A stretch of 63,850 nucleotides of DNA, filler included, from Raillietiella orientalis (taxonomy: Eukaryota): the NCBI GenBank assembly GCA_036172245.1. It is 3 parts of 3 records of this genome, joined end to end, with 100 filler letters (N's around TTAATTAATTAA, not from the genome) between each part and the next. Parts side by side here need not be neighbours in the genome. Positions count along the whole stretch, not along the records: positions 1 to 24,498 come from JAYWIR010000220.1; 2 more parts are not named here. One strand, 5' to 3'. The position numbers and the translations under genes were made by a program. This document shows positions 2,552 to 24,598 of this stretch, piece after piece. Every line of letters begins with the position of its first letter. Within the stretch, counting starts at the first letter, position 1. The notes below the pieces were generated by a model, which did not search any database, was not told the DNA's origin, and saw only the letters and a program-made list of their open reading frames with translations.

Positions 2552-4073
<1,522 letters not shown>

Positions 4074-4083
4074 AATAAGTTCA

Positions 4084-4138
4084 TAAGATTTTATATTTCT
4101 AACTTTGAAGGTTAGTATTTTATTTAACTTATAATCTT
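4084..4138 (-). tRNA. trnW: mitochondrial tRNA-Trp (TCA) pseudogene
   Basis: Minus strand AAGATT...CTAAC CTTCAAA GTTAG...AATCTT; about 55 nt, no T-arm visible. Confidence 0.85.
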
Positions 4139-4152
4139 GAAATGTTAGGTAA

Positions 4153-4212
4153 AGTAAAATGGCTGAGGAAAGCAGTAAATTGTAAATTTATTTATGATGA
4201 AATCTTTTACTA
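4153..4212 (+). tRNA. trnY: mitochondrial tRNA-Tyr (GTA) pseudogene
   Basis: AGTAAAATGGCTGAGGAAAGCAGTAAATTGTAAATTTAT...TTTTACTA, a typical arthropod trnY. Confidence 0.85.
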
Positions 4213-4236
4213 TTGAGTGACGGAATGTTATTCTGG

Positions 4237-4275
4237 AGTTTCTAGAATTGCAAGTTCTATGTTGTCTGAGAACTG
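4237..4275 (+). tRNA. trnC: mitochondrial tRNA-Cys (GCA) pseudogene, apparently lacking a D-arm
   Basis: Anticodon arm TAGAA TTGCAAG TTCTA; acceptor-like AGTTTC...GAGAACT; boundaries uncertain. Confidence 0.65.
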
Positions 4276-4998
4276 ATAAGAAATAGTAGTGGTACAAGGT
4301 GGTATAAGGTGCGCACTAAAATCTGAGTTTAGGGGATATGTTAAAGGTATCTTGTAAATTGAGAGTTGATCGATGTGTTGGTAGTTAGAGTAGAAATGAG
4401 AAGGGTAAAAATGTGAGGAGAAGAGAGATGGACATGGGAAGGAAAGGTGGTATGGGGGCAGTTCTGGGTTCGTTTTTTGGAAGGATGGTGAATGATGGGA
4501 GTCTAATGTTGAGATAGATGAGAAGAGAGATTGAGGAGGAAATGATTAAGATGATTGCTAGTGGGATGGGAATCAGTTCTAAAGTTGTTCATTTGGGGAA
4601 AAAGCCTGGGAGGGAGGGTATGCAGGAGAGGTTGAGTAATATGAAAGTATGCTTGTTTTCTGTAAAAGTAGGAGGCATCTAAGTGTATTAAACGAATAAA
4701 TGGTTAAATATGTAATTCATATTGTGGAAGATAGGTTAATTGTGAAAGTTATTCAGATATAGGGGAGGCAGATGAATAAATTATGAGTAACTGTATGGAG
4801 GAGGTAGATAGGGCCATAATACAAGAGAGTGTAGCTCTGAGAATTGTGGAAATTAAAATAATTGATGATGGTAGAAGGGAAATGATGAATGTGGGGCAAC
4901 TTTTGTGAGGTTAGGAGGATATTGATTGATAGTCATGAACAATTGTTGATCATAAGTAATAATTAATAATGGGTATTATGCCTAGAAGTAGCACAATA
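4276..4998 (-). pseudogene. nad2: NADH dehydrogenase subunit 2, 3' part (NUMT)
   Basis: LNLSCMPSLPGFFPKW (ND2 LS.GG.PP..GF.PKW motif) near 4590-4640; same base skew; 5' end cut by the retrotransposon fragment. Confidence 0.8.
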
Positions 4999-6470
4999 TG
5001 GGAACTGGGATAAAGTGACGTCAAAGCCAACTCATCGTGCCAAATTTCATTGCTCCCTGGCACGATTTTGAATTGGTGAGTTCTCACCAGTGCTCGTTTC
5101 CCTTGCCAGGTGGGGTGGATGTGCACCCACTATCCATTGGTATGCATCAGCGCAGACATCAGGACCCTCGAGTTCGACAACTACGAGTATGCCCTGCTCA
5201 CTGCTAAGGCCATCCCTCCCGTTTCGAGGGGAGATCTAGAAGTTGTCCCGCGTCCATAGACTCCACGGAGTGTTCTAGCAACTTCATTCTGGACTCTCCT
5301 TCTTCACGAGGGCGCCACAGCAATTTGAGCCTAACTCTCGGCCTAAATTTCCACAATCCGATCTTCCTTTGGAGGTTTTCAAGCTCCACCTTTGCTTTGT
5401 CTATTCGGCAGAAGAACGCTCCGTAGAGCACCTTAGGAAGGAGACCGCCATTCCACAAGATGGCTTTCCGCTTCATGTTGAAGTACACGCGAGTGTACTT
5501 GGTGGCTGAGGGTGGCCATCTGGTGTTGATTTGATCTTGTTTTTGTTAGTTTTTCGTTTGGGGCATGTGTTCCTCTTCCTATTCTGAGGTCTGGTATCAC
5601 CCATGTCGCTTTCGGACTCTTCATAGTCCGTGCTATCGGCGACTGGGTGCACGCTGCAGGTGAGGCCGTTGATCGGTTCGGAACAAGGCAAAAACGTGGG
5701 CGCCACACTAGTGTATGTCTTTTTGATGTTGAATAGTCTATCCTCCGGCACGAGTCGTTGCTCGTCGTTAGGGACGCATTCATCGCTGGATATTTCCACC
5801 ATGCAGGTTCTCTCGAGTGCTTCCGTCCTTGATTCCACTCGTTCGATTTGTGCGAGCTCTGCTTGCATGTTGGCAACTTCCACCAACTCCGAAGGTGGCG
5901 CAGAAATCTCCATCAGCTTCTCGGTTGTCGCGGCAACTTCCGCCGACTCTTCTGAGGATAGTTGAGCGACTCACTTCATCTTCCTTTTCTTATTTTCCTC
6001 GGTGAATACCTCTGCGGTCATGGCAGTCTCCTCGGTCAGAGGAGCTTGTATTGAGGCATTAGGCTATCGAGTCTTGTTTTGCCACCCCTGGCACCTTGGC
6101 GTCTTCAAAGCGTGTCATCATTGCAAACCTTTCCTCTGAGAAGATCTCCCCTAACAGGTTGCATACTTCCAGCTGCATGATTTCTCCGTACTGGAACACG
6201 AATTTCTTCATGGTATTCTTACTGGTGTTAAAGTAGAGATTTTTCAGGACTCTTCTCGTGGAGGTTTCGCCCATTCCACCCAACAGTAGAACATATATTG
6301 ACAGCCTTTTATCTTTAATTGCTTCGACAAGCGGGTCCCATGATGTGCATATGGTAAAGCCGGTCGCGCAGGGAATAATGGCCTGTGTTACGTTGAAGTC
6401 GACGTTTTAAGGGTGAAAAGCGATGTAAATGTCCTTCACATTAGCAGTTAGGAGAAGGTCGTTAAATGAG
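4999..6470 (-). mobile_element. Unit E: heavily deleted, diverged copy of the Tx1-like LINE family
   Basis: ORF1 RRM remnant (ANVKDIYIA...FNTSK...QYGE...GEIFSEE) at 6060-6460; ORF1 C-terminus at 5520-6000; ORF2 start ATGGCCACC joined to the post-RT region ATKYTRVYFNMKRKAILWNG; no U1 head. Confidence 0.85.
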
Positions 6471-6529
6471 TTTGCTTTGAAGTAATTCATTCCATCGCTT
6501 GTGAGACTAGGGAACCATCCTGTTCGCTA

Positions 6530-9306
6530 CCGCAATTTTCGGTGCACATGGCCTTCGTGGGCATCACCATCGGTTTCTAGGGGGACACCACTCCTGTCCT
6601 CTGAAACAAACCCAAAAGTGTGCCTTTCTGTCTTCCTCTGCAGACACCTCACCGCCTTCACCGCGTTCCAGTCTGGTCGAAGAGTAGGGAAGGTGAGTAC
6701 GTGGAGTTGAGTTTGGTCTTCGCACGCCATGCAGAATTCGTTCTTCTGTCTCCCGGTCCAGTGCCACATTCTGGAACCACTCAAAATGCCTCCGTTGAAG
6801 AACAAAAGGAGGTCGTCCTGAGTGTCTGGGGGTAGGTCACTCCTCATCAGAGCAGCCCCGACGGCCAGCACATTGGCTTGCGCTGGGCCGTAGCGGCTCG
6901 AGGCTGCGTCCAGGGCATTGAGGTCTTCCTGCTTCTTCGAGGTTTCCACCATGATGTTATCTTTGGTCATGAGCAGCCACGACTCCTGCGGCTGCTCCTT
7001 CCAAAAGTCCCGAATGCGATGGTTGAAACAACCCCGCAAGGTCGTGGTCAGGCGATGCAGTCGCAGTTGGTGCCGGCTGGCACTGGTAGCGAACTGCTCG
7101 CACCGTCGGATGTTCAATCTAGGCCTTTGGTTCAACCAGTTCACCGTCTTCTTTGGGATCGGGATGAAGTGAGGTATCACCATGGCCAGTTCTTCGTCCC
7201 ATATCTCGGAGCTGCGAGGCACGATTTTGAACCCTTGGGTTCTCACCAGTGCCTGCTTCCGCTTCCACGTAGGGTCGATGTCAATCCACTGTCCTGTGGC
7301 ACCTATGAGCGCTGACATCAGGCCCCTCGAGCCGTTCAACAGCTTCCAGTACGCCCGGTGCGCTGCATAGGGCCAGTCTTCCCAACTTCTGGTGAGATCC
7401 AGGAGCTGGCGCGCATCCATGCTTTCCACGGAGTGTTGCAACAGCTTCATCCCGGTCCCACCGTGCTCGCGAGGGCGGCACAGAAGTTTGAGCCGTACCC
7501 TGGGTCTATATTCCCGCCAGAGGATCTTCCTTTGTAGCCTTTCCAGTTCGTCCTTCGTCTTCTTGTCCATTCGGCATAAGGCCGCTCCATAGGACAAATT
7601 GGGAAGAACTCCATTCCACAAGGCGGACCTCCGCTTCATGTTGAAGTCGACGCGGGTGTACTTGGTGGCTTCATCGGTGACCTTAACGAGGATCTCCTGC
7701 CACCGGCAGCGAGACAAGATCTGGTCGCCAAGGTGGATTCCCAGGTGTTTTACGGTATCTGCCGCTCGGAATCCGGCTTCTTGCAGTGCGCAGAAGTTCA
7801 TGATTCCCGATTGGCAGCGGTGGCTCTACTGGGTGTTGATCCCAACTCCCAGTACTATTTACAATTGCTTGATTACACCTAGGATGGCTTCTTGATCTCG
7901 TTCCTACTTTAGGAAGAACAGGAGATCCTCCTCATACGCCAGGTGTATCAGCTGCTGTCCATCGATTCGTATTCGTTGGAGGCGGCTGCCCCGATCTATG
8001 ATCGCGGACACCGCCTCCATGTAGAGCACGAACAGCATCGGGCTCAGGGCGTCACCTTGGCGAACACCCCTTTCCATTTCAATTGCTGCCGTCTCCAGCC
8101 CGTTCAAATTGATCTTCACACGTTGCTCCCTCAAGGTTCATTCCAAGTAGTGAATGAAGAAGCTTGGGAAGCCCAGTTTCCTCAAGAACTTCAGCAGCAT
8201 CTCGTGGTCTATGGTATCGAACGCCGTCTCCATATCCGTTAGCCCAAGCACCAGGTCTTCGCCTACATATAGGCAATAACCAATGGTGGCCAGGGCGCAC
8301 TTCACGTTCGCAGACATGCTTCGTCCGGGCACCGCGCACGTCTGCGCTGGAGACACTACCGATGCCATCGACCAGCGATTGGCCCAAATCTTGACCAGCG
8401 ACTTGGCATGCGTGTTGAGGATGGTGATCGGCCGCCATTGGGTGACTTCCATCAGGTCGCCCCTCTTGGGCAGCAATGTCATGCTTTCCTCGTGTAACGG
8501 TGTTGGCAGTCTTCTTCCTGGATTGCGATTGTGAGTTCGTAGAACAGGCGAAGGTAGGCGTGCAGGTACCGCTGATGGTGCGAGATCGGAACACTATCGG
8601 GACCTGCGGCCATATCCTTGCGCTGTCCAGCGAAGTCAATCTTGATTTGCTCTGGGGAGATCTCTTCTTTCATCTTCTGTTGGTCTTGTTTCTTTACTCG
8701 CGGATGTAGGTACCTCAGGATGTTCTGTTGTTCCGTCGGGCACAGACGTCGCCGCCGGAAGTGGTAGACGTAATGATGGTGGAACGTTTCCGCGATTCCT
8801 TCCGACGTGTGCCTGAGTTCGTCTGCGTGCCGGATGGAGAGCACGTCGCTGGCGATGTTCGTCCTTTCCGGCACTCCAACCTCCCCTTTCACCGTCTTGA
8901 AGACGTACCGGCTCTCGTACTGGAACCCGTATTTCGAGAGCGAGCGATCTTGTTGCTGTTCTAGCTCATGGTACGCTTCCGACCTCATCTTCCAGTCGCC
9001 GAACTGCATGTTATTGAACAGATGGATGGTGCGCTTCAGCCTGTCCCAGTCGCCGACCCTGCGTATGGTGGTGTTGCGCAGGATCGCCTCGATCATGTCC
9101 TGGTAATAGGGATGCGTCTCGAACCATGCGGGCATGCATACTAATGCAGCCTGCACTTCCTCAGGGGGTGTTGCGTTTTTCACGTGGATCGTAGCAAGGT
9201 TCGATCCGACAGTACTGATGGAGTTTTCTTGAAGCCTTGCACACGATTGACGATGTCTCCAGGATGTGACGTTTATGTTCGTGAACGTCGACAGGAAGGT
9301 GGTCAT
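6530..9306 (-). pseudogene. Unit A ORF2 (RT + Zn finger; endonuclease mostly deleted)
   Basis: AAGPD, LLPKRGDL, WRPITILN, DMETAFDTIDH, GVRQGDALSPMLF, YEED (broken YADD), VKHLGI, CMACEDQTQLHVL; stops and frameshifts. Confidence 0.92.
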
Positions 9307-9312
9307 AGTTGA

Positions 9313-12034
9313 TTAGTTGGATGAACTGATCTTTTTGTTCTTTTTCGGGAACGATGTCGTCTTGCTCTTTTCTCTTCGCTGCTCCCAAATGTTCCTGTCT
9401 GTACCGACGTAGTCGGTGTTGTCGGCGACCGAGTGCGTGGTGTAGTTGGCGATGCTTTGTGGAGTTGCATAAGGCAATTCGTGAAGCTCGCCGTTAGAGT
9501 ATCTTTTCTTGAATTCCAGAATTCTGTCTTCGAGAGAGAAGCGACTGGCATCATCGGGAACACGCTTGTTGATTGAGATCACCAACGGATAGATGTTTGC
9601 GAAGGCCTGTGATCCCTTTTCCTTGGTGATTGCATCGTTCAGCATTTCCTGCAGTTCCTCCTCCGGGGTGACGTTGGGAATTTTCTCCAGTTTCGCTGTC
9701 GATGCCTCCGGCACCGCCTCCAGTGGCTCGAAAATTTCCGTCTGCTTTTCCATGATGCGTTTTTGTGTAGCCTTTGAAATTGATAGGCTTCTGCTCGGAG
9801 ACTTCTTTCCTTTTGGAGGCATTCACCTCTGCCAGGGGAGCATTCTTTTTTTCCGCTTCGCTATTCTCTTCCGTTGGGAGTGACGGCAGTCCCTGCGCGT
9901 CATTTCACGCAGCATCTCGACGGAATTCTTTTTTGGAATGGCCCGACAGCCGGCAGAAGTAGCACATGATGGGCCTCGTGCACGTCTTGCACGTGTGCCC
10001 CTGCTGGCCGCAGCGGTGGAACTGCGAATTTGAACAAGCGCCGAAGCGATACCCGAACGTTTTGCAGCCCACGCAGAACGCCGGTTGCTGCCTGTAGCAG
10101 ATGAGCACGCATCCGAGAGTGCGTCGATGTAGGCCACTCCCGGGAGCTCGGCCTCGTCGAACAGCTTCATCCGTGCCCAGCCTTCTGCGGAGAAGATGCC
10201 GTGCATCTGATTTTTGAGTTCTACGTGCATTACCTCCCCGTATTGGGAGAGGTAATTGCGGACGGCCAGTCTCGACGTGTTGAAGTCTATGCCTTTCAGG
10301 AAGACTGTCGTGGTTGACACTTCGCCCATTCCGCGGAAGATTCTTCCGTTTATGGGGAGGCTGTGTTCGATGAGTCCCTCTATCAGCGGCTCGCACGACG
10401 TGTAGATTGTGAAGCCGGTGGCGTCCGGGATGATTGCCTGGATGACGTCCAAGTCGACGTTCTTCTGGTGAAGGGCGATGTAGATGTACTCCACGCTGGC
10501 CATCCTGAGAGGCCCGGTCTGCAAAATCACGGGCTTGACTTCCGGACTCACCGTCATGAACGGCAGATCCTCCTCGTTTACCATGTGAACTTCCTGGGCT
10601 GCCGGGTTTCTTCTTTTTGCCGGGGGCACCCCGGGGAAACTTCCGAAAATCGTGAAACTCGCGTTCGACGGGAACGACGGCGCGGCCGCGTACGACGCCG
10701 GGCAGGGAGCCGCGCGCGTAGCTGCGGGCGTTGCTTCCGGCATAGCTTCCGGCGTCGTCTTGGTAGGTGCTGCGAGCGCTGCTCCCGCCTTAGCTGCGCT
10801 CGCAGCACTTCCCAAGGATTTCGGGACTCCTTTGACTTCTGCTGTGACTTTGGCAACTTTTTCCAACTCGGCTGCTTGTACTTCCACCGCTTCCTTGGAT
10901 GGCTCGGCCTCTTCCGCCGGTGCTTCCACAGAAGGTTGTGGTGCTGTCCTTTTCTTCCGCTTGGTGGGCTTCTTTCTCCCTTCGTTGGGTTCTCCCGTCT
11001 TCCTTGCAGTAACCTTGTTCGAAGGAGCCACCTTCTCTTTTTCTGCTTCCTCGGGTTCTGTCGGGAGTGGCGGCAGGCCCTGCGAATCTCTCCCTGCGGC
11101 GTATCGTCTGCATTCCTTCTTGGAATGACCAGACAAGCCGCAGAAGTAGCAGTTTATGGGCTGGTTGCATTCCCGGTGGAAGTGGCCCTGCTGGCCGCAT
11201 CGGTGACACTGCGCCCTAGGGCATGTTCCGAAGCGGTGGCCGAACGTCTCGCAACCAGCGCAAAAGATTGGCTGTTGTCTATATTTCAGCAGCACGGATT
11301 GGGAATAGGCGTCTATGTACGCCAGGTCCGGCATCTTCGCGTTCTCGAACAAACGCATCCTGGCGAATCCCTCCCCAGAGAAGATCTCGCCGTATTGATT
11401 CCGTAGTTCGAGATGTACAACTTCCCCCTACTGGCATAGAAAGTCCTTTATCGTTTTCTTGAGGGTGTTAAAGTCGATCCCTTTTATGTATACGGTCGTC
11501 GTGGAGGTTTTTCCCACTCCACGGAACAGACGACAATTTATCGTCAGACCCTGCTCTACCAGGCCTTCAATCAACGGCTCACGCGGTGTAAATGTGGAAG
11601 CCGGTTCCGCTGGGTATGATGGCGTTGATCACATCCGAGTCTACGTTGCTCTGGTGAAGGGCTATGTATATGCCCTAAACATTCGCCATGCGGAGGGGAG
11701 CCGTGTTGAACACGACAGGTTTCGCCTCCGCATCCCTGCGAAGAATGGGTTCGTCTTCATCGTCGAGCACGAAACGTGCTGGCTGCACCGATGTACGCTT
11801 TTTCGCTGGGGGTATCCCAGGAAAATCATTCGTCCTTGCCACTTCCGCATACGAACGGCTAGATGGCGCCGCCGCTGCTGCCGCTGCCGACGACGCAGGG
11901 CGGATCCATACGGGCGTCGCAACCAGCTTTGCAGGGGTCGCCGCTCCCGCGCACGCTGCGTTCGGCCGTACCGCCGATGTCGCCGCCAGCGCCTCTACCG
12001 GCCTCGCAGATGTGGAGACGTCCATCGCCTCCAT
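9313..12034 (-). pseudogene. Unit A ORF1, chimeric: two Ala-rich + RRM + 3xCCHC modules in tandem
   Basis: Module 1 knuckles CAGCETFGHRFGTC/CHRCGQQGHFHREC/CYFCGLSGHSKKEC (~11090-11265); module 2 CVGCKTFGY../FHRCGQQGHTCKTC/CYFCRLSGHSKKEF (~9925-10075); frameshifts. Confidence 0.88.
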
Positions 12035-12171
12035 TTTCCCCCAGTGGGGCCGATCCCGTGGGGCAACGTCCTCCTCCGCACACTGGGTGGTAGGGCAAAG
12101 TCCACGGTCCCTTTCTGTCACAAACTTTCCGCACAGCACTTTAAAAAAAACACTTTCCTTCAAGAATTTCG

Positions 12172-12335
12172 CAGGAGTCCGCGCGAACGCAGTCTCCCAG
12201 CCTAAAAATTATGCTTCCGAGTAACCCACGTTTGGGGTTATCGCAGAGGTCAGCCCAATCGCAGTGCAATGATCGAGCCTCACTCTGGAGGGATCTCCAT
12301 GGTGACCAAGATTGTCCCCAAGTCCGACAAGCGGT
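12172..12335 (-). ncRNA. U1: Variant U1 snRNA-like sequence, copy 1 (164 nt)
   Basis: Minus strand ACCGCTTGTCGGACTTGGGGACAATCTTGGTCACCATGGAGATCCCTCCAGAGTGAGGCTCGATCATTGCACTGCGATTGGGCTGACCTCTGCGATAACCCCAAACGTGGGTTACTCGGAAGCATAATTTTTAGGCTGGGAGACTGCGTTCGCGCGGACTCCTG. Collinear with metazoan U1: SLII loop ATTGCAC, SLIII loop CAAACGT, Sm site AATTTTTAG, SLIV GCG-TTCG-CGC. Confidence 0.93.
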
Positions 12336-12343
12336 GGGGTGAG

Positions 12344-12349
12344 TTTATT
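12344..12349 (-). terminator. AATAAA polyadenylation-like signal at the 3' end of unit B
   Basis: Same position (8 nt before the U1-like start) at all three junctions. Confidence 0.7.
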
Positions 12350-12490
12350 GAACATCACAAAACCTTACACACTGTACATAAACAGAAACATTCGACTTCA
12401 CAACTAAACACTGTTTCCGTCTTTGGAGTTTCCTTCTTCTCCTCTTTCACAATTAAGTCACTCGTGTTCTCTGGGGAATTAGGGGGCGGG

Positions 12491-15400
12491 TTAGGGGTTT
12501 CTCCTTTGTGCCTGGGAATACTCGTCCATCTTCATGAGGATGTAACGGTACGTCCAGGCGGCGATCCTCCCGCAGCTCCTGATCCCTATTTCCTTTCGAA
12601 CAAGGCCACTGAGAATGTCCCAAGCCGGCACTTGTCGTCGCTGTGTATACATCTAGGCCCTTCTTATCACAATGGCTGTGATGAAGAGGGCCAGCGTCGT
12701 CAAAACCATCGGATTGTACAGGGGAACCACTCCTGTGCCCTGAAACAATCCCCACAGGATCTGCATCGCAGTCTTCCTCTGCAGGCACGTCACCGCCTTT
12801 ACCGCCTTCCAGTCCGGACGCAGCGTGGGGCAGGTGAGTACGTGGAGTTGGGTTTCCTCTTCTCCGCAAGCCTTGCACAATCCATCTTGTTGTCTCCCGG
12901 TCCAGTGCCGCAATCTGGATCCACTCAGAATGCCTCCGTTGAAGAACAACAGGAGGTCGTCCTGAGTGTCCGGAGGTAGGTCGCTCCTCATCAGTGCAGC
13001 CCCGACGGCCAGCACATTGGCATGTGCTGGGCCGTAACGGCACGAGGCTGCGTTGAGGGCATCCAGGTCTTGGTGTTTTCGCGCCGTTTCCACCCTGATG
13101 TTATCTTTGGTCATCAGCAGCCACGACTCCTGCGGCTGCTCTTTCCAAAGTTCCCGGCTGCGATGATTGAAACTACCCCTCAAGGTCGTGGTCAGGCGAT
13201 GCAGTCGCAGTTGGTGCCGGCTGGCACTGGTAGCGAACTGCTCGCACCGTCGGATGTTCAATCTAGGCCTTTGGTTCAACCAGTTCACCGTCTCCCTTGG
13301 GATCGGGATCAAGTGAGGTATGACCATGGCCAGATCTTCGTCCCATATCTCGGAGCTGCGAGGCACGATTTTGAACCCTTGGGTTCTCACCAGTGCCTGC
13401 TTCCGCTTCCACGTAGGGTCGATGTTGATCCATTGTCCTGTGGCACCTATGAGCGCTGACATCAGGCCCCTCGAGCCGTTCAACAGCTTCGAGTACGCCC
13501 GGTGCGCTGCATAGGGCCAGTCTTCCCAACTTCTGGTGAGATCCAGGAGCTGCCGCGCATCCATGCATTCCACGGAGTGTTGCAGCAGCTTCATCCCGGA
13601 CCCACCGTGTTCGCGTGGGCGGCACAGAAGTTTCAGCCGTACCCTGGGTCTATACTCCCGCCAGAGGATCTTCCTTTGTAGCCTTTCCAGTTCTTCCTTC
13701 GTTTTCTTGTCCATTCGGCAGAAGGCTGCTCCGTAGAGAACCTTGGGAAGGAGAACTCCGTTCCACAAGGCAGCCCTCCGCTTCATGTTGAACTCGACTC
13801 TGGTGTACTTGGTGGCTTCGTCGGTGACCTTACCCAGGATCTCCTGCCACAGGCAGCGAGACGCGGTCTCTTCGCCGACGCGGATACCCAGGTACTTGAC
13901 GGTGTCAGCCGCTCGGAATCCGGCCTCTTGAAGTACTGAGAGGTCCATGATCCCGATTGGCAGCAGGTGGCTCTTCTGGGAGTTGATCTTGAGTCCTAGT
14001 CCATTTTCCATCTGCTTGAAAACACCTAGGAATGTTTCTTGATCACGTTCGTCCTCCAGGAAGAACAGCAGATCGTCCGCATACGGAAGGTGTGTCAGCT
14101 GCTGGCCGTCGATTTTGAATGCTTGTAGGCGGCTGCCCCGGTGTATGATCTTGGACACCGCCTCCATGGAGAGCACGAGCAGCATCGGTCTCAGGGCGTC
14201 ACCTTGGCGAACACCCCTTTCCATCCGAATTGCTTCAGTCTCCGGATTGCTCCGCCAGGGTCCATTCCAGGTAATGCATGAAGATGCTTGGGAAGCCCAG
14301 TTTCCTCAAGATCATCAGCAACATCGAGTGGTCCACGGTGTCGAACGCCTTCTCCATATCCGTGAGCCCAAGCACCAGGTCTTCGCCCACGTATCGGCAA
14401 TAAGCGATGGTGGCCAGGGCGCACTTCACGTTCGCAGTCATGCTTCGTCCGGGCACCGCGCATGTCCGCGTAGGAGACACGACGGATTGCATCGCCATGC
14501 TTAAGCGATTGGCCCACATCTTGGCCAGCCACTTGGCATCCGTGTTCAGGATGGTGATCGGCCGCCATTGGGTGACTTATATCAGGTCGCCTCCCTTCGG
14601 CAGCAGTTTCATCCTTCCCTCGTGGAACGATGCTGGGAGTGTTCCTTCTTCGTGGATGGCGTTTGTCAGTTCGTGGAACAAGCGAAGGTAGGCGTGCAGG
14701 TACCGCTGATAGTGCGAGATGGGAACACTATCGGGACCTGCCGCCACATCCTTGCGCAGTCCAGCGAAAGCGATCTTGATTTCCTCTGGCGAGATTTCTT
14801 CGTCTATCTTTTGGTGAGCCAGATTCTTTACTCGCGGAGGTAGGTACCTCAGGATGTTCTGTTGTTCCGTCGGGCACAGGCGTCGCTGCCGAAAGTGGGA
14901 GACGTAATGATGGTGGAACGTTTCCGCGATTCCCTCGGACGTGTGCCTGACTTTGTCTGCGTGCCGGATGGAGAGCACGTCGCTGGCGATGTTCCTCCTT
15001 TCCGGCACTCCAACTTTTCATTTGACCGTCTTGAAGACGTACTGGCTCTCGTACTGGGGCCAGTACTTCGAGAGCGAGCGATCTTGCTGCTGTTGCAGCT
15101 CGCGGTACGCTTCCGTCCTCATCTTCCTGTCGCCGTATTGCATATTACTGAACAGATGGATGGTTCGCTTCAACCTGTCCCAATCGGCGACCCTGCGAAT
15201 GGTAGTGTTTCGCAGGATCGCCTCGATCAAATGCTGGTGACAGGGATTCCTCTCGAACTATTCCGGCATTCATACTAATGCATCTGCGCGCCTTCTTTTC
15301 TTCGGGGGTTCTCTTTCTTCAGCGTGAATCGTAGCAGGGGATGATCCGAGAGTACCGATGGAGATTCCCGGAAGCCTTGCACACGATTCGCGATGTGTTC

Positions 15401-15974
15401 GTTGAAGAGGACGTTTTCGATCGGCTTGCTGCTGCCAACAGCCATTGCAGGCCGAACTCGTCCGACAGCTGCCGATAAGCCGTTCTTCCCTGTGCATCCT
15501 TGGACAGGTTGATGTCCAGCATGTTAAGGTCAGCCACAACGATCAAGATGTCCTTTGTCGAGGCTTTGCTGCGAAGGAGAGACTGCACGGCCTCCGCGTA
15601 GCGATTGTTTTTTCGTTTGGCGCGTACACGTTCAATAAGAACAGGTGAACGTTTCCGGACCAGGTCAACCTCACTCCGACGATTAGGCCTGGCCAAGGTG
15701 AAAAGGTTTTGAGGATGGTGTGTGCGATCTCGTTCTTCACGATGATTGCTATGCCTTTGGTGCTTTTCTGGGCCGGGCTCACGAACAGCTGGGCGTCCAG
15801 TCGTCGTTCCAGCTCCAGGATGGTCTGAAGTTTGAACTCGTGGGTTTCCTGAAGGCAGACGATGTGGTCACGCTCGAGGGTCCGCGTGACCATCCGTCTC
15901 TTCTCCGGGTTCCACAATCCATTCACATTCCAGGAGATGTTGATGCTCCTGACATTCGAAAGGAAGGTGGCCAT
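12491..15974 (-). pseudogene. Unit B ORF2: APE endonuclease + reverse transcriptase + C-terminal Zn finger
   Basis: ISWNVNGL, IVCLQETH, LLNVYAPN, DLN, SDH (APE); AAGPD, LLPKGGDL, WRPITILN, DMEKAFDTVDH, GVRQGDAL, YADD, VKYLGI (RT); CKACGEEETQLHVLTC; several frameshifts and a premature TAG at 12653. Confidence 0.95.
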
Positions 15975-15980
15975 AGGGGA

Positions 15981-17543
15981 CTAGTTGGAGGACCTGCTCT
16001 TCCTCTTGCTCTTCTTCTTCTTCGGAGACGTTGTCGTCCCCCCCTTTGCGTCTCGCTGATCTCCTACGTCGCTTTCTGTCCCGACGTAGTCGTTGCTGTC
16101 CGCGACAGAGTTCCTCGTTTCATTTAGGACATTTCGAGGGACTGCATAAGGCAGCTTATGAAGCTCCCCTCTGGCGAAGCGCTGTTTCACGTCCTGCATG
16201 CTTCCCTCCAATTGGAAACGTTTGGCCGCGTCTGGAACGCGCTCGTTGATGGAGGCCTCCACCCGGCTGATGCGTTGCAGAGCTTCTGACTTCGCTTCTC
16301 TGGTTACTGCTTCCTGCACGATTTTCGCGACTTCCTTGACTTCAGCTGTCACGTTGGCTACTTCCAGCAACTCTGCAGCTTGGAATTCCACCGCTTCCTT
16401 GGCTGGCTCGGCCTCTTCCGCCGGCGCTTCCACAGAAGGTTGTGGTGCTGTCTTTCTCTTCCCCTTTGCGGGCTTCTTTTTCCCTTCGGTGAGTTCTGCC
16501 ACCTTCCTGGCAGTAACCTCGTCCGAAGGAGCCACCTTCACCTTTTCTGCCTTCTTGTCGGGTTCGCTTGGAAGCGGAGGCAATCCTTGTGCATCTCTCC
16601 ATGCGGCGTATCGTCTGCATTCCTTCTTGGAATGGCCAGACAAGCCGCAGAAGTAGGACTTGATCTTCTGGTTGCACTCCCGGAAGAAGTGGCCTCGCTG
16701 GCCGCATCGGTGACATTCAGCCCTAGGGCATGCTCCGATGCGGTGCCCAAACGTCTTGCAGCCTGCGCAAAATACAGGTTGTTGCCTGTATTTGAACATC
16801 AGCGATTGCGAATACGCGTCGATGTAAGCCACGCCAGGCATCTGCGCATTTTCGTACAGGCGCATCTTGGCAAATCCTTCTCCGGAGAAGATCTCACCAA
16901 ACTGGTTCCGTATCTCCAGATGGTGGACTTCCCCGTACTGCGACAGGAAGTTCTTGATGACTTTCTTGCTGGTGTGAAAGTCAACCCCTTTCAGGTACAC
17001 TGTCGTCGGAGAGGTTTCTCCTACTCCACGGAATAGCTTCCCATTGATGGTCAATCCGTGATCGCAAAGTGCCTCGATGAGGGTATCGCACGACGTGTAA
17101 ATGGTGAAACCTTTCACACACGGAATCACGGCCTGAAGTACGTCCATAGCGACGTTTTTCTGATGAAGGGCGATGTAAATGTCCTTCACGTTTGCTAAAC
17201 GAAGGGGACCGCAGTTAAAAACTACCGGCTTGACATCTGCCGGCAGGACGAGTATAGGCTCATCCTCGTCGTCCAGGATGTACCTTGTTGGTTGGACAGG
17301 GATCCTCGGTTTTGCCGGAGGCACTCCCGGAAAACCGACCGATTTCACCGCCGCCGCATTCCAACCGCCAGGTGTCGCCGCCGCTGCTGCCGCCGCGTAC
17401 GACGCAGGGCGGATCGATACGTGCGTCGCAACGAGCGTTGCAGGGGACTCTGCTCCCGCGCACGCTGCGTTCGGCCCTACTGCCGATGTCGCCGCCAGCG
17501 CCTCTAGCGGCCTCGCACATGTGGAGACGTCCATTGCCTCCAT
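15981..17543 (-). CDS. Unit B ORF1: gag-like nucleic-acid-binding protein (Ala-rich N-term, RRM-like domain, 3 CCHC knuckles, charged helical region, basic tail)
   Basis: Uninterrupted frame (track ORF 15981..17588 from GTG; first ATG at 17543, matching unit A); third knuckle has C->S. Confidence 0.85.
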   Translation of the reverse strand: MEAMDVSTCARPLEALAATSAVGPNAACAGAESPATLVATHVSIRPASYAAAAAAATPGGWNAAAVKSVGFPGVPPAKPRIPVQPTRYILDDEDEPILVLPADVKPVVFNCGPLRLANVKDIYIALHQKNVAMDVLQAVIPCVKGFTIYTSCDTLIEALCDHGLTINGKLFRGVGETSPTTVYLKGVDFHTSKKVIKNFLSQYGEVHHLEIRNQFGEIFSGEGFAKMRLYENAQMPGVAYIDAYSQSLMFKYRQQPVFCAGCKTFGHRIGACPRAECHRCGQRGHFFRECNQKIKSYFCGLSGHSKKECRRYAAWRDAQGLPPLPSEPDKKAEKVKVAPSDEVTARKVAELTEGKKKPAKGKRKTAPQPSVEAPAEEAEPAKEAVEFQAAELLEVANVTAEVKEVAKIVQEAVTREAKSEALQRISRVEASINERVPDAAKRFQLEGSMQDVKQRFARGELHKLPYAVPRNVLNETRNSVADSNDYVGTESDVGDQRDAKGGTTTSPKKKKSKRKSRSSN

Positions 17544-17679
17544 TTTCCCCCACTGGGGCCGATCCCGTGGGGCAATGTCCTCCTCCACACTCTGGGTGAT
17601 GAGGCAAAGTCCACTGTCCCTTTATGCCACAAACTTTCCACAGAGCACAAGAAGAAATTACTTTCCTTGAAGAATTTCG

Positions 17680-17843
17680 CAGTAGTCCGCACGAACGCAG
17701 TCTCCCAGCCTAAAAATTATGCTTTCGAGTAACTCACGTTTGAGGATAGCGCAGAAATCAGCCCAACCGCAGTGCAGTGATCGAGCCTCACTCTGGAGGG
17801 ATCTCCATGGTGAGCAAGTTTGTCCCCAAGTCCGACAAGCGGT
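17680..17843 (-). ncRNA. U1: Variant U1 snRNA-like sequence, copy 2 (degenerate)
   Basis: Same length as copy 1 with 13 substitutions by hand count, including U1A loop ATTGCAC->ACTGCAC and SLIII/SLIV mismatches. Confidence 0.9.
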
Positions 17844-17851
17844 GGGGTGAT

Positions 17852-17857
17852 TTTATT
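17852..17857 (-). terminator. AATAAA signal at the 3' end of unit C
   Basis: Positionally conserved upstream of U1-like copy 2. Confidence 0.7.
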
Positions 17858-18000
17858 CAACAATACAAAAATCCTTACGCATTGAACATCAAGAGACACA
17901 TTCGAATTCGCAACTGAACACTGTTAATGTCTTTGGAGTTTCTTTCTTCTCCTGTTTCACCATTAAGTAACTCGTGTTCTATGGGGAATTAGTGGGCGGG

Positions 18001-21000
18001 TTAGTGGTTCGTGTTTTGTGACTGGGAATACTCGTGCATCTTCATGAGGATGTAACAGTACGTCCAGGCGTTGATGCTCCCGCAGCTCCTGATCCCGATT
18101 TCCATACGAACAAGGCCATTCAGGATGTCTCATGACGGCACTTGTCGTCGCTCTGTATACATCTTGTCCCTTCTTATCACAATGGCTGTGATGAAGAGGG
18201 CCAGCGTCGTCAAAACCATCGGATTGTACAGGGGAACCACTCCAGTCCCCTGAAACAGTCCCCACAGGATCTGCATCGCAGTATTCCTCTGCAGGCGCTT
18301 CACCGCCTTTACCGCCTTCCATCCGGAACCAGCGTGACGCAGGTGAACACGTGGAATTGAATTTCCTCTTCCACACACGCCATGCAGAATACATCCTGCT
18401 GTCTCCCGGTCCAGTTCGCTGTCTGGAACCACTCAGAATGCCTTTGTTGTAGAACAACAGGAGGTCGTCCTGGGTGTCCGGGGGAAGGTCCCTCCTCATC
18501 AGTGCAGCCCCCACGGTTAGAACATTAGCATGCGCTGGGATGTAGGGACAGGAGGCTGCGTTGAGGGCATTTAGGGCTTGATGTTTGCGCGCCGTTTCCA
18601 CGCTGATGTTATCTATGGGCATGAGCAACCACGACTCCTGCAAGTTTTCTTTCCAAAGTTCGCGGGTGCGATGTTGAAATAACCATTCAAGGTCGTGCTT
18701 AGGCGATGCAGTCGCAGTTGGTGGCGGCTGGCACTGGTAGCGAACTGCTCGCTCCGTCGGAGGTTCAATCTAGGCCCTTGGTTCAAAAAGTTCACCGTCT
18801 CCCTTGAGATCGGGATGTAGTGAAGTATCACCATCGCCAGTTCTTCATACCATATCTCGGAGCTGCGAAGGACGATTTTGAACCCTAGGGCTCTCACCAG
18901 TGCCCTCTTCCGTTTCCACGTAGGGTCGATGTTGATCCACTGTCCTGTGGCGCCTATGAGCGCTGACATCACGCCCCTCGAGCCGTTCAAGAGCTTGGAG
19001 TACGCCCTGTGCGCTGCATAGGGCAAGTCTTCCGAACTTCTGGTGAGATCCGGGTGCTGCTGCGCATGAATGCTTTCCACGGAGTGTTGGAGTAGCTTCA
19101 TTCCGGTCCCACCGTGCTCGCGTGGGTGTCAGAAGTTTCAGCCGTACCCTGCGTTTATACAGAGGATCTTTCTTTGTAGCCTTTCCAGTTCCTCCTTCGT
19201 CTTCTTGTCCATTCGGCAGAAGTTTGCTCCGTATAGAACCTTGGGAAGGAGAACTCGGTTCCACAAGGCAGCCCTGCGCTTCATGTTGAAGTCGACTCTG
19301 GTGTACTTGGTGGCTTCGTCGGTGACCTTACCCAGGATCTCCTGCCACAGGCAGCGAGACGCAGTCTCTTCGCCGAGGCGGATACCCAGGTACTTGACGG
19401 TGTCAGCCGCTCGGAATCCGGCCTCTTGAAGTACTGAGAGGTCCATGATCCCGATTGGCAGCAGGTGGCTCTTCTGGGAGTTGATCTTGAGTCCTAGTCC
19501 ATTTTCCATCTGCTTGAAAACACCTAGGAATGTTTCTTGATCACGTTCGTCCTCCAGGAAGAACAGCAGATCGTCCGCATACGGAAGGTGTGTCAGCTGC
19601 TGGCCGTCGATTTTGAATGCTTGTAGGCGGCTGCCCCGGTGTATGATCTTGGACACCGCCTCCATGGAGAGCACGAGCAGCATCGGTCTCAGGGCGTCAC
19701 CTTGGCGAACACCCCTTTCCATCCGAATTGCTTCAGTCTCCGGATTGCTCCGCCAGGGTCCATTCCAGGTAATGCATGAAGATGCTTGGGAAGCCCAGTT
19801 TCCTCAAGATCATCAGCAACATCGAGTGGTCCACGGTGTCGAACGCCTTCTCCATATCCGTGAGCCCAAGCACCAGGTCTTCGCCCACGTATCGGCAATA
19901 AGCGATGGTGGCCAGGGCGCACTTCACGTTCGCAGTCATGCTTCGTCCGGGCACCGCGCATGTCCGCGTAGGAGACACGACGGATTGCATCGCCATGCTT
20001 AAGCGATTGGCCCACATCTTGGCCAGCCACTTGGCATCCGTGTTCAGGATGGTGATCGGCCGCCATTGGGTGACTTATATCAGGTCGCCTCCCTTCGGCA
20101 GCAGTTTCATCCTTCCCTCGTGGAACGATGCTGGGAGTGTTCCTTCTTCGTGGATGGCGTTTGTCAGTTCGTGGAACAAGCGAAGGTAGGCGTGCAGGTA
20201 CCGCTGATAGTGCGAGATGGGAACACTATCGGGACCTGCCGCCACATCCTTGCGCAGTCCAGCGAAAGCGATCTTGATTTCCTCTGGCGAGATTTCTTCG
20301 TCTATCTTTTGGTGAGCCAGATTCTTTACTCGCGGAGGTAGGTACCTCAGGATGTTCTGTTGTTCCGTCGGGCACAGGCGTCGCTGCCGAAAGTGGGAGA
20401 CGTAATGATGGTGGAACGTTTCCGCGATTCCCTCGGACGTGTGCCTGACTTTGTCTGCGTGCCGGATGGAGAGCACGTCGCTGGCGATGTTCCTCCTTTC
20501 CGGCACTCCAACTTTTCATTTGACCGTCTTGAAGACGTACTGGCTCTCGTACTGGGGCCAGTACTTCGAGAGCGAGCGATCTTGCTGCTGTTGCAGCTCG
20601 CGGTACGCTTCCGTCCTCATCTTCCTGTCGCCGTATTGCATATTACTGAACAGATGGATTGTTCGCTTCAACCTGTCCCAGTCGGCGACCCTGCGAATGG
20701 TAGTGTTTCGCAGGATCGCCTCGATCAAATGCTGGTGACAGGGATTCCTCTCGAACTATTCCGGCATTCATACTAATGCATCTGCGCGCCTTCTTTTCTT
20801 CGGGGGTTCTCTTTCTTCAGCGTGAATCGTAGCAGGGGATGATCCGAGAGTACCGATGGAGATTCCCGGAAGCCTTGCACACGATTCGCGATGTGTTCGT
20901 TGAAGAGGACGTTTTCGATCGGCTTGCTGCTGCCAACAGCCATTGCAGGCCGAACTCGTCCGACAGCTGCCGATAAGCCGTTCTTCCCTGTGCATCCTTG

Positions 21001-21475
21001 GACAGGTTGATGTCCAGCATGTTAAGGTCAGCCACAACGATCAAGATGTCCTTTGTCGAGGCTTTGCTGCGAAGGAGAGACTGCACGGCCTCCGCGTAGC
21101 GATTGTTTTTTCGTTTGGCGCGTACACGTTCAATAAGAACAGGTGAACGTTTCCGGACCAGGTCAACCTCACTCCGACGATTAGGCCTGGCCAAGGTGAA
21201 AAGGTTTTGAGGATGGTGTGTGCGATCTCGTTCTTCACGATGATTGCTATGCCTTTGGTGCTTTTCTGGCCCGGGCTCACGAACAGTTGGGCGTCCAGTC
21301 GTCGTTCCAGCTCGAGGATGGTCCGATGTTCGAGCTCGTGGGTTTCCGGAAGGCAAACGATGTGGTGACGCTCGATGTTCCGCGTGACCATCCGTCTCTT
21401 CTCCGGGTTCCAGAATCCATTCACATTCCAGGAGGTGAGCTTGGTGCTCCTGACAGTCGACAGGAAGGTGGCCAT
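18001..21475 (-). pseudogene. Unit C ORF2 (APE-RT-Zn finger), disrupted
   Basis: LTSWNVNGF, IVCLPETH, VYAPN, YADD, VKYLGI; shares frameshifts with unit B and has extra lesions in the 3' third. Confidence 0.93.
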
Positions 21476-21481
21476 AGGGGA

Positions 21482-23044
21482 CCAGCTGGAAGATCTGCTC
21501 TTCCACTTGCTCTTCTTCTTCTTGGGTGACGTTGTCGTCCCTCCCTTTGCCTCTCGCTGATCTCCTACGTCGCTTTCTGACGGGTCGTATTCGGTGCAGT
21601 CGTCGACGGAGTTCCTCGTTTCTTTGGCGACGTTTTGCGGAGGTGCATGAGGCAGCTCTTCGTGCTCCGCGCTGGCGAAGCGTTGTTTGACTTCCGGCAT
21701 GCCTTCTTCCAATTGGAAACGTTTCGATGCGTCTGGAACGCGCTCATTGATGGAGGCCTCCATCCGGCTGATGCGTTCCAGATCTTCTACCTTGGCTTCT
21801 TTGGTTACTGCTTCCTGCACGATTTTCGCGACTTCCTTGACTTCAGCTGTCACGTTGGCTACTCCCGCCAACTCTGCAGCTTGGAATTTTACCGCTTCCT
21901 TGGCTGGCTCGGGCTCTTCCGCCGGCACTTCCACAGAAGGTTGTGGTGCTGTCTTTCTCTTCCCCTTTGTGGGCTTCTGTTTCCCTTCGGTGAGTTGTGC
22001 CGCCTTCCTGGTATTCACCTCGGCCGAAGGAGTCTTTTTCTCCTCTTCCGTTTGCACTTGCGGTTCCACCGTTAGTGGTGGCATCCCCTGTGCGTCCCTC
22101 CATGCGGCTTATCGCCTGCATTTCTTCTTCGAATGACCAGACAAGCCGCAGAAGTTGGACTTTATTGCCTGGTTGCACTCCTGGAGGAAGTGGCCCTGCT
22201 GGCCACAACGGTGGCACTGAGCTCGGGGTCACTGTCCTACGCGGTGTCCAAAAGCCTTGCACCCCACGCAGAAGATTGGTTGCTGCCTATGTTTTAGCAA
22301 GACTGATTGCGAATAGGCGTCTATATACGCCAGCCCCGGCATCTTGGCGTCTTCAAACAATCGCATTTTGGCCAAACCTTCCCCGGAGAAGATTTCGCCG
22401 TAATGATTGCGGATCTGCAGATGTTGGACTTCCCCGTATTGGGACAGGTATTCCTTAATGATCTTTTTGTGGGTGTTGAATTCGATGCTCTTGATGTACA
22501 CTGTAGTCGTGGACGTTTCTCCCACTCCACGGAACACCCGACCGTTAATAGGCAGTCCGTGTTTTGTCAGAGCCTCGATGAACGGATCACACGATGTGTA
22601 TATCGTGAATCCCGTCCCGTTTGGAATTACAGCCTTAATGACGTCAAAGTCAACGTTCTTCCGGTGAAGGGCGATACAAATGTCCTTCACGTTTGCGATT
22701 CGGAGTGGCCCAGTGTTGAATATTACAGGCTTCACCTCCGCATTTCTCTGTAGGATGGGTTCATCTTCGTCCCCGAGGACGTTTACTGTGGGTCTGACCG
22801 GGGTTGTCGGTTTTGCCGGAGGCACTCCCGGAAAATCGTCCGGTTTTGCCGCCGTTCCATTATAACGGCTAGGTGGCGCCGCCGCTGCTGCCGCTGCAGA
22901 CGACGCAGGGCGGATGGATACGAGCGTCGCCACGTGCGTTGCAGGGGATGCCGCTCCCGCGTACGCTACGTTCGGCCCTACCGACGATGTCGACGCCAGC
23001 ACTTCTACCTGCTTCGCAGGAACGGAGACGCCGATCGACTCAAT
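21482..23044 (-). pseudogene. Unit C ORF1, disrupted
   Basis: RRM and knuckles present; start codons changed to ATT/ATC, frameshift near 22230, stop TAG changed to TGG. Confidence 0.88.
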
Positions 23045-23182
23045 TTTTTCCCCACTGGAGGTATTCCCGCAAGGCAATGTCCTCCTCCGCTTACTGGGTT
23101 GTAGGGGAAAGTCTACGGTCCCTTTCTATCACACCACTTTCCACGCAGCACTCGAAAAAACCACTTTCTTTAAAGAATTTTG

Positions 23183-23346
23183 CAGGAGTCCGCGCGAACG
23201 CAGTCTCCCAGCCTAAAAATTATGCTTCCGAGTAACCCACGTTTGGGGTTATCGCAGAGGTCAGCCCAATCGCAGTGCAATGATCGAGCCTCACTCTGGA
23301 GGGATCTCCATGGTGACCAAGATTGTCCCCAAGTCCGACAAGCGGT
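23183..23346 (-). ncRNA. U1: Variant U1 snRNA-like sequence, copy 3 (identical to copy 1)
   Basis: Base-for-base match to 12172-12335 by manual comparison. Confidence 0.93.
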
Positions 23347-23351
23347 GGGGT

Positions 23352-24498
23352 TAGTTTATTATGTACCAAACGTACAACCGAACACTCTAGTTTTCCACTT
23401 CCACAAAACAGAATACTGCATTTGTCTGTAGAGTTAAATTTCAGTTCACATTCGCTATTAGTCCACTTTAGTATAAGGTAGGGTTAAGGTGCGGTAGAGT
23501 TCGTCCTTTGTGCCTGGGAATACTCGTCCATCTTCATGAGGATGTAACGGTACGTCCAGGCGGCGATCCTCCCGCAGCTCCTGATCCCGATCTGCTTACG
23601 AACAAGGCCACTGAGAATGTCCCAATCCGGACGCTGTGTATACATCTTTGCCCTTCTTATCACAATGGCTGTGATGAAGAGGGCCAGCGTCGTCAGTAGC
23701 ATGGTATTGTACAGAGGAAAAACACCCGTCCTCTGAAACAATCCCCACAGGATCTGCATCGCAGTCTTCCTCTGCTTGCACGTCACCGCCTTCACCGCTT
23801 TTCAGTCCGGACGCAGCGTGGGGCAGGTGAGCACGTGGAGTTGAGTTTCCTCTTCCCCACACTCCATGCAGAATCCATCCTGCTGTCTCCCGGTCCAGTG
23901 CCGCATTCTGGAACCACTCAAAACGCCTCCGTTGAAGAACAACAGGAGGTCGTCCTGCGTGTCCGGGGATAGGTCACTTTTCATCAGTGCAGCCCCTATG
24001 GCCAGTACATTGGCTTGCGCTGGGCCGTAGCGGCTCGAGGCTGCGTCGAGGGCATCGAGGTCTTGCTGCTTCTTCGCGGTTTCCACCCTGATGTTATCTT
24101 TGGTTATGAGCAGCCACGACTCCTGCGGCTGCTCCTTCCAAAGTTCCCGGATGCGATGGTTGAAACAACCCCGCAAGGTCGTGGTCAGGCGATGCGGTCG
24201 CAGTTGGTGCCGGCTGGCACTGGTAGCGAACTGCTTGCACCGTCGGATGTTCAATCTAGGCCTTTGGTTCAACCAGTTCACCGTCTCCCTTGGGATCGGG
24301 ATGAAGTGAGGTATCACTATGCCTAGTGGTTCGTCCCATATCTCGGAGCTGGGAGGCAGGATTCTGAACCCTTGGGTTCTCACCAGTGCCTGCTTCCGCT
24401 TCCACGTAGGGTCGTTGGTTATCCACTGTCCTGTGGCACCTATGAGCGGTGACATCTGGCTCCTCGAGCCGTTTTTTGTTTTCTTGTCCATTCGGCAG
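23352..24498 (-). mobile_element. Unit D: 3' end of another family member, cut by the contig end
   Basis: ORF2 C-terminus (CMECGEEETQLHVLTC...YSQAQRTNSTAP*), an internal deletion near 24470 (DKKTK joined to NGSRS), distinct 3' UTR. Confidence 0.92.
23355..23360 (-). terminator. AATAAA signal at the 3' end of unit D
   Basis: Positionally conserved although the unit D 3' UTR does not align with those of B and C. Confidence 0.7.
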
Positions 24499-24598
24499 NN
24501 NNNNNNNNNNNNNNNNNNNNNNNNNNNNNNNNNNNNNNNNNNTTAATTAATTAANNNNNNNNNNNNNNNNNNNNNNNNNNNNNNNNNNNNNNNNNNNN
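24499..24598. other. Artificial contig linker (N44-TTAATTAATTAA-N44)
   Basis: Exactly 100 bp, six-frame-stop palindrome in the centre, identical to the second gap. Confidence 0.97.

Follow-up and report, generated by a model that had tools for sequence, protein, structure and literature searches.

The window analysed here is a 63,850-nt stretch of DNA from Raillietiella orientalis (assembly GCA_036172245.1). It consists of three contigs (positions 1-24498, 24599-49033 and 49134-63850) connected by linkers of the form N44-TTAATTAATTAA-N44 (24499-24598 and 49034-49133), and sequences on the two sides of a linker are not real neighbours. The first contig carries on its minus strand a head-to-tail array of long interspersed elements (LINEs), at least four to six units in extent, that runs off the contig end. 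At three junctions in this array the 3′ end of one LINE and the 5′ end of the next are joined through a 163-nt module that, as scored by a covariance model, derives from U1 small nuclear RNA (snRNA).

Organization of the array

The array is evident as a direct repeat from ~6700 to 24458 with a period of ~5.5 kb, the lowest unit of which measures 6144 nt in the repeat analysis. Along the minus strand, the order per unit is the end of open reading frame (ORF) 2, a short 3′ untranslated region (UTR) closing with AATAAA and a further 9 nt, the 163-nt module, the 5′UTR and ORF1. The preliminary description of this DNA, made from the sequence by eye, reported such a recurrence of LINE 3′ end, U1 and 5′UTR-ORF1-ORF2, and it is upheld by identical junctions and by a start-to-start spacing of 5503 and 5508 nt among the three modules. 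The repeated units of the tandem array it proposed also stand, with the correction that the lowest unit (12335 to ~6565) is a hybrid that contains an extra ORF1 module and lacks a 3′UTR and U1.

Every unit is broken by stops or frameshifts. Unit A (23346..24498, minus) is cut off by the contig end and retains the ORF2 C-terminus, in a frame with the motif CMECGEEETQLHVLTC and a stop near 23486, and a 3′UTR of ~137 nt (AATAAA at 23360-23355). Unit B (17843..23182, minus), delimited from an ORF map, the Exo_endo_phos match, tblastn frames and alignment, comprises a 5′UTR, an ORF1 that has lost its start codon and is frameshifted, a broken ORF2 (endonuclease from ~21430, reverse transcriptase at ~20440-19000) and a 3′UTR of ~119 nt. 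The sole intact ORF1 belongs to unit C (12335..17679, minus), where the 5′UTR (17679-17544) is followed by ORF1 (17543-15981, 520 aa, two CCHC knuckles), a broken ORF2 (15980-12491, with a premature TAG at 12655-12653 and the true stop at 12493-12491) and a 3′UTR of ~156 nt that ends in AATAAA (12349-12344) and 9 nt. In the hybrid unit D (6565..12171, minus) a 5′UTR (12171-12035) and a C-like ORF1 that extends as far as its linker (~10800) are followed by a second, much more diverged ORF1 module of a different lineage and ORF2, which are 52% identical to unit C at the amino-acid level. The translation of unit D contains two modules resembling an RNA recognition motif (RRM) and three CCHC knuckles, and RVT_1 is found in 8593-8141. 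Its period of 6144 nt, compared to ~5505 nt, makes unit D 637 nt longer. The homology it shares with units A to C is lost at ~6565, ahead of the ORF2 stop codon, with no 3′UTR or U1 after it.

The U1-derived modules

Module AB (23183..23345, minus), which joins units A and B, and module CD (12172..12334, minus), which joins units C and D, are identical at 163 of 163 positions, and each aligns to positions 1-166 of the 166 positions of the U1 model RF00003 with a score of 105.2 bits (E 1.9e-25; Rfam cmscan). Module BC (17680..17842, minus), joining units B and C, is a decayed copy with 13 unique differences, several broken pairs and a mutated stem-loop 2 loop; at 68.5 bits (E 2.4e-15) it falls 1 bit below the gathering score of 69.5 bits, which the other two of the three copies pass. 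Across 5000-26000, no U1 match beyond these three modules was found at E ≤ 1. The preliminary description had termed the segments U1-like and had named this scoring as the check, with which the results agree, and its three minus-strand coordinates identify the correct places and are one base too long at the 5′ side.

The stems of the module follow the U1 model, with compensated pairs in the RF00003 alignment, and the stem-loop 2 loop AUUGCAC is intact in two of the three copies. Judged by score and structure, the modules are U1 snRNA-derived. The Sm-like site reads AAUUUUUAG (model consensus AAUUUgUGg), and the stem-loop 1 loop reads GGUCACCAUGG, deviating from the model consensus GAUCAaGAAGg. 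All three copies read CCGCUUGUCGGA over the first 12 positions, which match the RF00003 consensus AUACUUACCUGG at 5 of 12, and the segment that pairs with 5′ splice sites is absent from all of them. Hence the earlier label of a full-length variant U1 is accurate in its coverage of the model and not in its implication of a complete 5′ end. Because the first 11 nt of the 5′ end (CCGCUUGUCGG) are not U1-like, the module is, on its predicted properties, unable to serve as a normal spliceosomal U1.

The DNA upstream of each module is the 3′UTR of the preceding LINE and not an snRNA-type promoter of the module's own. Between 16 and 150 nt upstream of the modules the sequence is hypervariable between copies (82/160 differences), and there is no conserved element at promoter distance. 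An arrangement in which a native U1 gene array had received one LINE per spacer was considered and rejected, as the spacer that would hold the promoters is hypervariable and the U1 copies are identical. A conserved 'proximal 3′UTR' was likewise discarded as a promoter candidate, since the stretch is coding; the TAG in the ORF2 of unit C is premature, and the ORF2 of units A and B is ~55 codons longer.

As for pairing between the odd 5′ arm of 11 nt and the LINE RNA, the complement of this arm is confined to the three modules and one site with a single mismatch, which is on the wrong strand, inside the ORF1 of a neighbouring LINE fragment (fragment E, below), and compatible with chance. A minimum free energy (MFE) fold of the LINE tail plus module was not distinctive (z = -1.62). 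That fold has the LINE tail CCCCACCG paired to positions ~9-19 of the module (CGG...UGGGG) in a small hairpin that spans the junction (12339-12316, with counterparts at the other two junctions) and that may be due to chance. A metagenome scan with a 23-nt U1 5′ motif returned 0 matches.

Structure of the LINE-U1 junctions

All three junctions have the form, on the minus strand, ...AATAAA-N9 followed by CCGCTTGTCGG...(U1)...CCTG, followed by C(G/A)AAATTCTT..., and the two sides, AATAAA-N9|CCGC... and CCTG|C(G/A)AAATTCTT, are base-identical in three of three. On the 3′ side, the module ends at the last position of the U1 model (166/166) and directly abuts the LINE 5′UTR (136-137 nt, starting CGAAATTCTT...). 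With this junction falling at the end of the U1 model, the joint bears the signature of two RNA ends brought together, as far as can be read from sequence. Upstream of each 5′UTR lies a full-length module with its 3′ end complete, not a 5′ fragment, and there is no split target gene. The initial statement that U1 is unsplit, unlike the arrangement of the U2-targeting LINEs Keno and Utopia, is borne out.

The 5′ boundary of the module can be placed within ~20 nt, where the LINE tail ends either after ACCCCA or after the 11 non-U1 bases, 20 nt past AATAAA. All three visible LINE 3′ ends, at this one locus, are joined to the same base of the module, and no A run occurs between AATAAA-N9 and the next module in any of the three. 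The 3′UTR (~119-156 nt) is hypervariable, with 82/160 differences between units A and C, and the retention of AATAAA-N9 in three of three despite this variability points to a genuine poly(A) signal, in which case the LINE would end at the first bases of the module or slightly within them. DNA sequencing run X1 (share 0.13), compared at 80% likeness, provided 71 short contigs, 40 of them less than 90% alike. One contig of this run joins an A-like 3′UTR at 23501 directly to 12350 and lower (the AATAAA tail), i.e., a further 3′UTR variant at the same tail. This joint is weak, with a shorter side of 39 nt and its extent into U1 unseen, and apart from it (12350 to 23501) the 8 of 80 pieces and 6 of 67 loose ends listed for X1 hold no U1-flank information.

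The conserved block of AATAAA, N9 and U1 that follows a hypervariable linker resembles the layout of many LINE 3′UTRs, and with no poly(A) run at the junction, the module could be read as the 3′ tail of the upstream LINE (5′UTR...3′UTR-U1), recognised by the reverse transcriptase in the manner of other structured 3′ tails. Under such a reading a conserved AATAAA would lie 172 nt before the RNA end and cause premature polyadenylation, it is the 3′ end of the module and not its 5′ end that matches an RNA terminus joined to another RNA terminus, and the three copies have yielded no structural support, all of which make a U1 tail most improbable.

Divergence and selection among the units

The units are 70-80% identical in ORF1. 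Ratios of nonsynonymous to synonymous divergence (dN/dS), estimated using the Nei-Gojobori method with Fisher p values for nine pairs drawn from ORF1 and the ORF2 C-terminus, range from 0.20 to 0.57 in nine of nine pairs, eight of which are significant at p<0.05. The most divergent signal is that of ORF1 in units B and C (271 codons, dS 0.95, dN/dS 0.20, Fisher p 1.9e-23), accompanied by ORF1 ratios of 0.34 for D vs C and 0.40 for D vs B, and by 0.26-0.57 in the ORF2 C-terminus, where one pair has a p of 0.054. Since copies within an array are not under selection there, dN/dS below 1 means that the divergence accumulated along active, retrotransposing lineages, which implies three or more independent arrivals that all share the same two U1 junctions. 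The proposal that the units represent separate lineages thus gains support, and separate arrivals refute a single chance junction followed by simple tandem duplication.

One tract departs from this divergence. Units B and C are near-identical over 19378-21269 vs 13880-15771 (minus), where they differ at 2 of 1892 positions, match without interruption for 1282 nt, and have a stop and a frameshift in common; this would be the outcome of gene conversion, of a recent exchange or of an assembly effect such as a collapse.

A more elaborate origin at the DNA level would begin with one chance juxtaposition of a U1 retropseudogene and a LINE, spread by tandem duplication or unequal crossing-over, with the LINE portions later overwritten through ectopic conversion by family members dispersed elsewhere. 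The regular period, the 1.9-kb B/C tract with its shared defects, the additional 637 nt of hybrid unit D, and the position of the array at a contig end in repeat-rich DNA beside a mitochondrial-like insert are all in keeping with such a history, and conversion from donors without U1 would stop at the LINE ends and so leave sharp U1 boundaries. Conversely, the dN/dS values in nine of nine pairs cannot arise in situ, a hypervariable 3′UTR still retains AATAAA-N9 at every junction, and the scenario needs many separate ectopic conversions reaching up to both module edges, for which direct insertion is a far simpler substitute. We regard this origin as improbable.

Evolution of the module relative to its flanks

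Between the BC and CD junctions, the module has 13/163 differences, the UTRs 48/297 and coding sequence 30/376, and the module changes more slowly than the UTRs and synonymous sites. In this comparison the module behaves like constrained sequence that has diverged along with its element. Between the AB and CD junctions, the module has 0/163 differences, the 5′UTR 29/139 (21%) and the 3′UTR tail 82/160 (51%), and the limits of the identity lie no more than a few bases from the module edges. This second pattern would require either conversion limited to the sole segment common to all units or a module re-derived from outside the LINE.

A module that belongs to the locus and not to the element is one way to obtain such sharp limits. 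If the LINE RNA lacked U1, a bottom-strand nick at the U1 5′ edge (or at position 11/12) together with a top-strand cut ~153-164 nt downstream at the U1 3′ edge would, upon fill-in, produce U1-LINE-U1, and repeated hits on either U1 would build an array through U1-length target-site duplication. Such duplication yields the observed order and the precise junctions without any U1-containing transcript, and as U1 would be copied from the locus, no co-divergence with the LINE lineages would be expected. R9, a site-specific LINE of rotifer rDNA, is reported to make an exceptionally long target duplication (Gladyshev and Arkhipova, 2009); R9 differs in its restriction-like endonuclease and its 28S rDNA target. 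In addition, U2 arrays in Phytophthora hold different Utopia families, with intact U2 upstream of the elements, as set out in a section of PMC4640811. Set against this, nothing explains why a cut made in DNA should place the top-strand break precisely at the mature RNA 3′ end, successive duplications need extra gene conversion to leave AB and CD identical around a middle BC with 13 unique changes, and since the module is no working U1 gene (it is without the 5′ splice-site segment and a conserved upstream promoter), the target would have to be a pseudogene-like family. We consider the duplication unlikely.

The same bounded identity would also follow if U1 were recaptured with each insertion, i.e., if the cDNA were completed by switching template to a U1-like RNA that is plentiful in the cell, with integration still at the 5′ edge of a U1 module. 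Recapture explains identical AB and CD modules beside diverged LINEs, an identity that ends within a few bases of the module, and a joint at the exact U1 3′ end, and the repeated 5′ addition of U1/U2 sequence in SINEU elements, described in part of PMC4494074, is a parallel. It would nonetheless require an expressed snRNA that has an aberrant 5′ end (the 5/12 match to AUACUUACCUGG and the deviating stem-loop 1 loop) and is unable to pair with 5′ splice sites. Furthermore, in known snRNA/LINE chimeras the jump takes place in a minority of insertions, according to the relevant text of PMC4494074, compared to three of three here. On balance recapture appears quite improbable.

LINE proteins and classification

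The ORF2 product has an apurinic-type endonuclease and a reverse transcriptase (Pfam Exo_endo_phos E 5.9e-9; RVT_1 E 3.1e-11), and a C-X2-C-X7-H-X4-C motif is present in two of the three ORF2 ends scanned, ORF2 features that are shared with the L1 clade as well. ORF1 has two to three exact C-X2-C-X4-H-X4-C motifs; its Pfam matches to a CCHC knuckle and to Nup35_RRM_2 are both below the curated cut-offs, an RRM-like region is visible by eye before the knuckles, and its AlphaFold model is too poor for use (mean pLDDT, the predicted local distance difference test, 36.3). An exhaustive comparison of the reverse-transcriptase half against 1.84 billion representatives gave a best relative with 29% identity and a single match below E 1e-30. 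The best matching solved structures are those of human L1 ORF2p, and the few named protein matches comprise a reverse transcriptase from Xenopus and otherwise L1-like proteins of plants. A metagenome scan with the reverse-transcriptase protein produced 175 pattern matches and no relative. On these sequence affinities the LINEs are members of the L1/Tx1 superfamily, and the initial assignment as Tx1-like is retained at that level, the affinity reaching the superfamily only. A Type I ORF1 (RRM plus CCHC) is consistent with both Tx1 and plant L1, as a passage of PMC5203782 describes.

Neighbouring sequence

Directly below unit D lies fragment E (5020..6564, minus), a lower-GC, internally deleted relative of the LINEs in which part of ORF1 is joined to part of the ORF2 C-terminus. 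Fragment E is without U1, and the repeat families D15 and D20 found in it are 63-73% alike to the ORF2 C-terminal region of the LINEs. Positions 1-4300, below the array and fragment E, hold a mitochondrial-like insert whose plus strand is strongly skewed towards G+T (GC skew up to 0.66). Read with translation table 5, the insert contains an ND4-like segment (139-948, plus) and COX1-like (2547-3918) and COX2-like (1944-2321) segments on the minus strand, with many stops; the best matches of the COX1-like piece are fragments only 50-67% identical. This insert is probably a nuclear copy of mitochondrial DNA. On the other side, position 24498, inside unit A, is where the contig stops and not the end of the array, and the 278-bp satellite that follows in the window is not its neighbour. 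Copies of this satellite, 90-97% identical to one another, fill 24599-49033 (plus) and, in the opposite orientation, 49134-63850, and the composition skews flip sign between the two.

Discussion

A regular alternation of LINE and U1 implies that U1 is renewed as the array grows. Every insertion has to yield a new U1, since insertion beside a single U1 would stack LINEs without U1 between them. We put at roughly even odds (about 0.5) the reading, first proposed in the preliminary description and plausible, in which the transposed RNA carries the module as its 5′ head and inserts at the 5′ edge of a U1 module. It is ranked first because of the RNA-end joint, the alternation at three of three junctions, and the co-divergence of module and element between BC and CD. 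We infer the place of the module in the transposed RNA, the target site and the transcription mode of the LINE from these features. Under this mechanism, the element would first have gained the module when its reverse transcriptase, on reaching the 5′ end of the LINE RNA, jumped to the 3′ end of U1 snRNA, and such a jump is the proposed reason that the module and mature U1 share the same 3′ terminus. Later copies would use the 5′ edge of a U1 module as their insertion site, whether that module is a U1(-like) gene or heads a resident copy, such that the LINE 3′ end (AATAAA plus ~9-20 nt, with no poly(A) run) becomes joined to U1. Arrays would grow through repeated homing, with the 163-nt module reproduced in every insertion, and later reshaping at the DNA level may have included gene conversion between B and C and the unequal exchange that gave rise to hybrid unit D.

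Several observations weigh against a U1 head. The U1 copies of units B and D are identical despite flanks with 29/139 and 82/160 differences and an ORF1 dS of ~0.58; a vertically inherited head should have diverged, and the identity therefore needs conversion confined to the module or a source of U1 other than the LINE. The near-identity of B and C over 1.9 kb, with shared defects, would show that homogenisation at the DNA level acts in the array. Two LINE-LINE joints, at ~10800 (in D) and ~6565 (between D and E), have no U1, and insertion is perhaps not strictly U1-linked, though both joints look like deletions or unequal exchange. Nor does a U1 head bring an obvious means of transcription, given that no conserved promoter element is found 16-150 nt upstream, and snRNA genes have external promoters with no internal one known, at least as stated in a section of PMC4494074. 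All of the junction counts, moreover, come from one contig and one locus.

A fuller version of the U1-head reading, which we hold to be less likely than not, would be that of an autonomous two-ORF LINE with a heritable U1 5′ head that homes to U1 5′ edges, places a fresh U1 behind the resident promoter, is transcribed by read-through, and makes use of the head for ribonucleoprotein (snRNP) formation or import. Precedents exist for individual components, in that snRNA heads have been added by template switching in SINEU and in U6/L1-type chimeras, and co-transcription with the target helps site-specific integration (both from portions of PMC4494074). If this version is true, the U1 head, though without splice-site pairing, keeps an Sm-like site, a U1A-type loop and the 3′ stem-loop, and it may route the LINE RNA through snRNP assembly and nuclear import. 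The element would then be the first U1-linked LINE and the first LINE bearing an snRNA head.

Telomeric HeT-A/TART arrays of Drosophila are also head-to-tail, mix LINE lineages through successive transposition, and use the 3′ end of a neighbour to serve the next element, and they differ in having no snRNA module, variable 5′ truncation and targeting to chromosome ends. The closest comparisons among elements tied to snRNA genes are the U2-targeting Keno (Tx1 clade) and Utopia (NeSL clade). As in the present array, a LINE is associated with one snRNA gene through a precise 3′ junction, and Utopia forms tandem copies, arrays with different families between U2 copies, and intact U2 upstream in Phytophthora (sections of PMC4640811). 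They differ in that the target is U2, the downstream snRNA is truncated (starting at nucleotide 39) and spacer DNA is present, according to the same sections, whereas here a full-length U1 abuts both LINE ends. In its pertinent passage, PMC4640811 names only Keno, Utopia (both U2), Dada-U1 and Dada-U6 as elements that target snRNA genes. Dada-U1 shares U1 snRNA gene specificity and tandem insertions, and it differs as a DDE transposon that sits inside U1 with a 6-bp duplication (extracts of PMC3706591) and is not a retroelement.

The likeness to elements with snRNA sequence at their 5′ end is of another kind. Crocodilian SINEU elements, short interspersed elements (SINEs) mobilised by Tx1-Mar LINEs, have U1/U2 heads gained by template switching, and their transcription is likewise puzzling in light of external snRNA promoters, as parts of PMC4494074 report. 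They are short, non-coding, poly(A)-tailed and inserted into a Mariner transposon, in contrast to a two-ORF LINE that has no poly(A) run and a neighbouring LINE at its junction. Chimeric snRNA/L1 retrocopies (U6-L1) also have a full-length snRNA 3′ end joined to a LINE by a reverse-transcriptase jump (excerpts of PMC4494074), though these are sporadic dead ends with a 5′-truncated L1, whereas here the join is to a full-length LINE 5′ end and recurs in separate lineages. No U1-linked LINE was found in full-text literature, a search with Repbase/Dfam entries and subscription journals outside its coverage, such that a Repbase-only or unpublished family is possible.

The present copies, all from one locus, are dead. 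Site-specific LINEs in multicopy RNA genes serve as models for harmless parasitism and for targeted gene insertion, and snRNA heads are otherwise known only on short SINEs, where transcription is unexplained (in the portion of PMC4494074 that treats them). A coding LINE whose junctions all retain an unsplit U1 module would bring these elements both a new target and a new design, and would offer a tractable case for studying what use a retroelement can make of a Pol II snRNA sequence that has no internal promoter.

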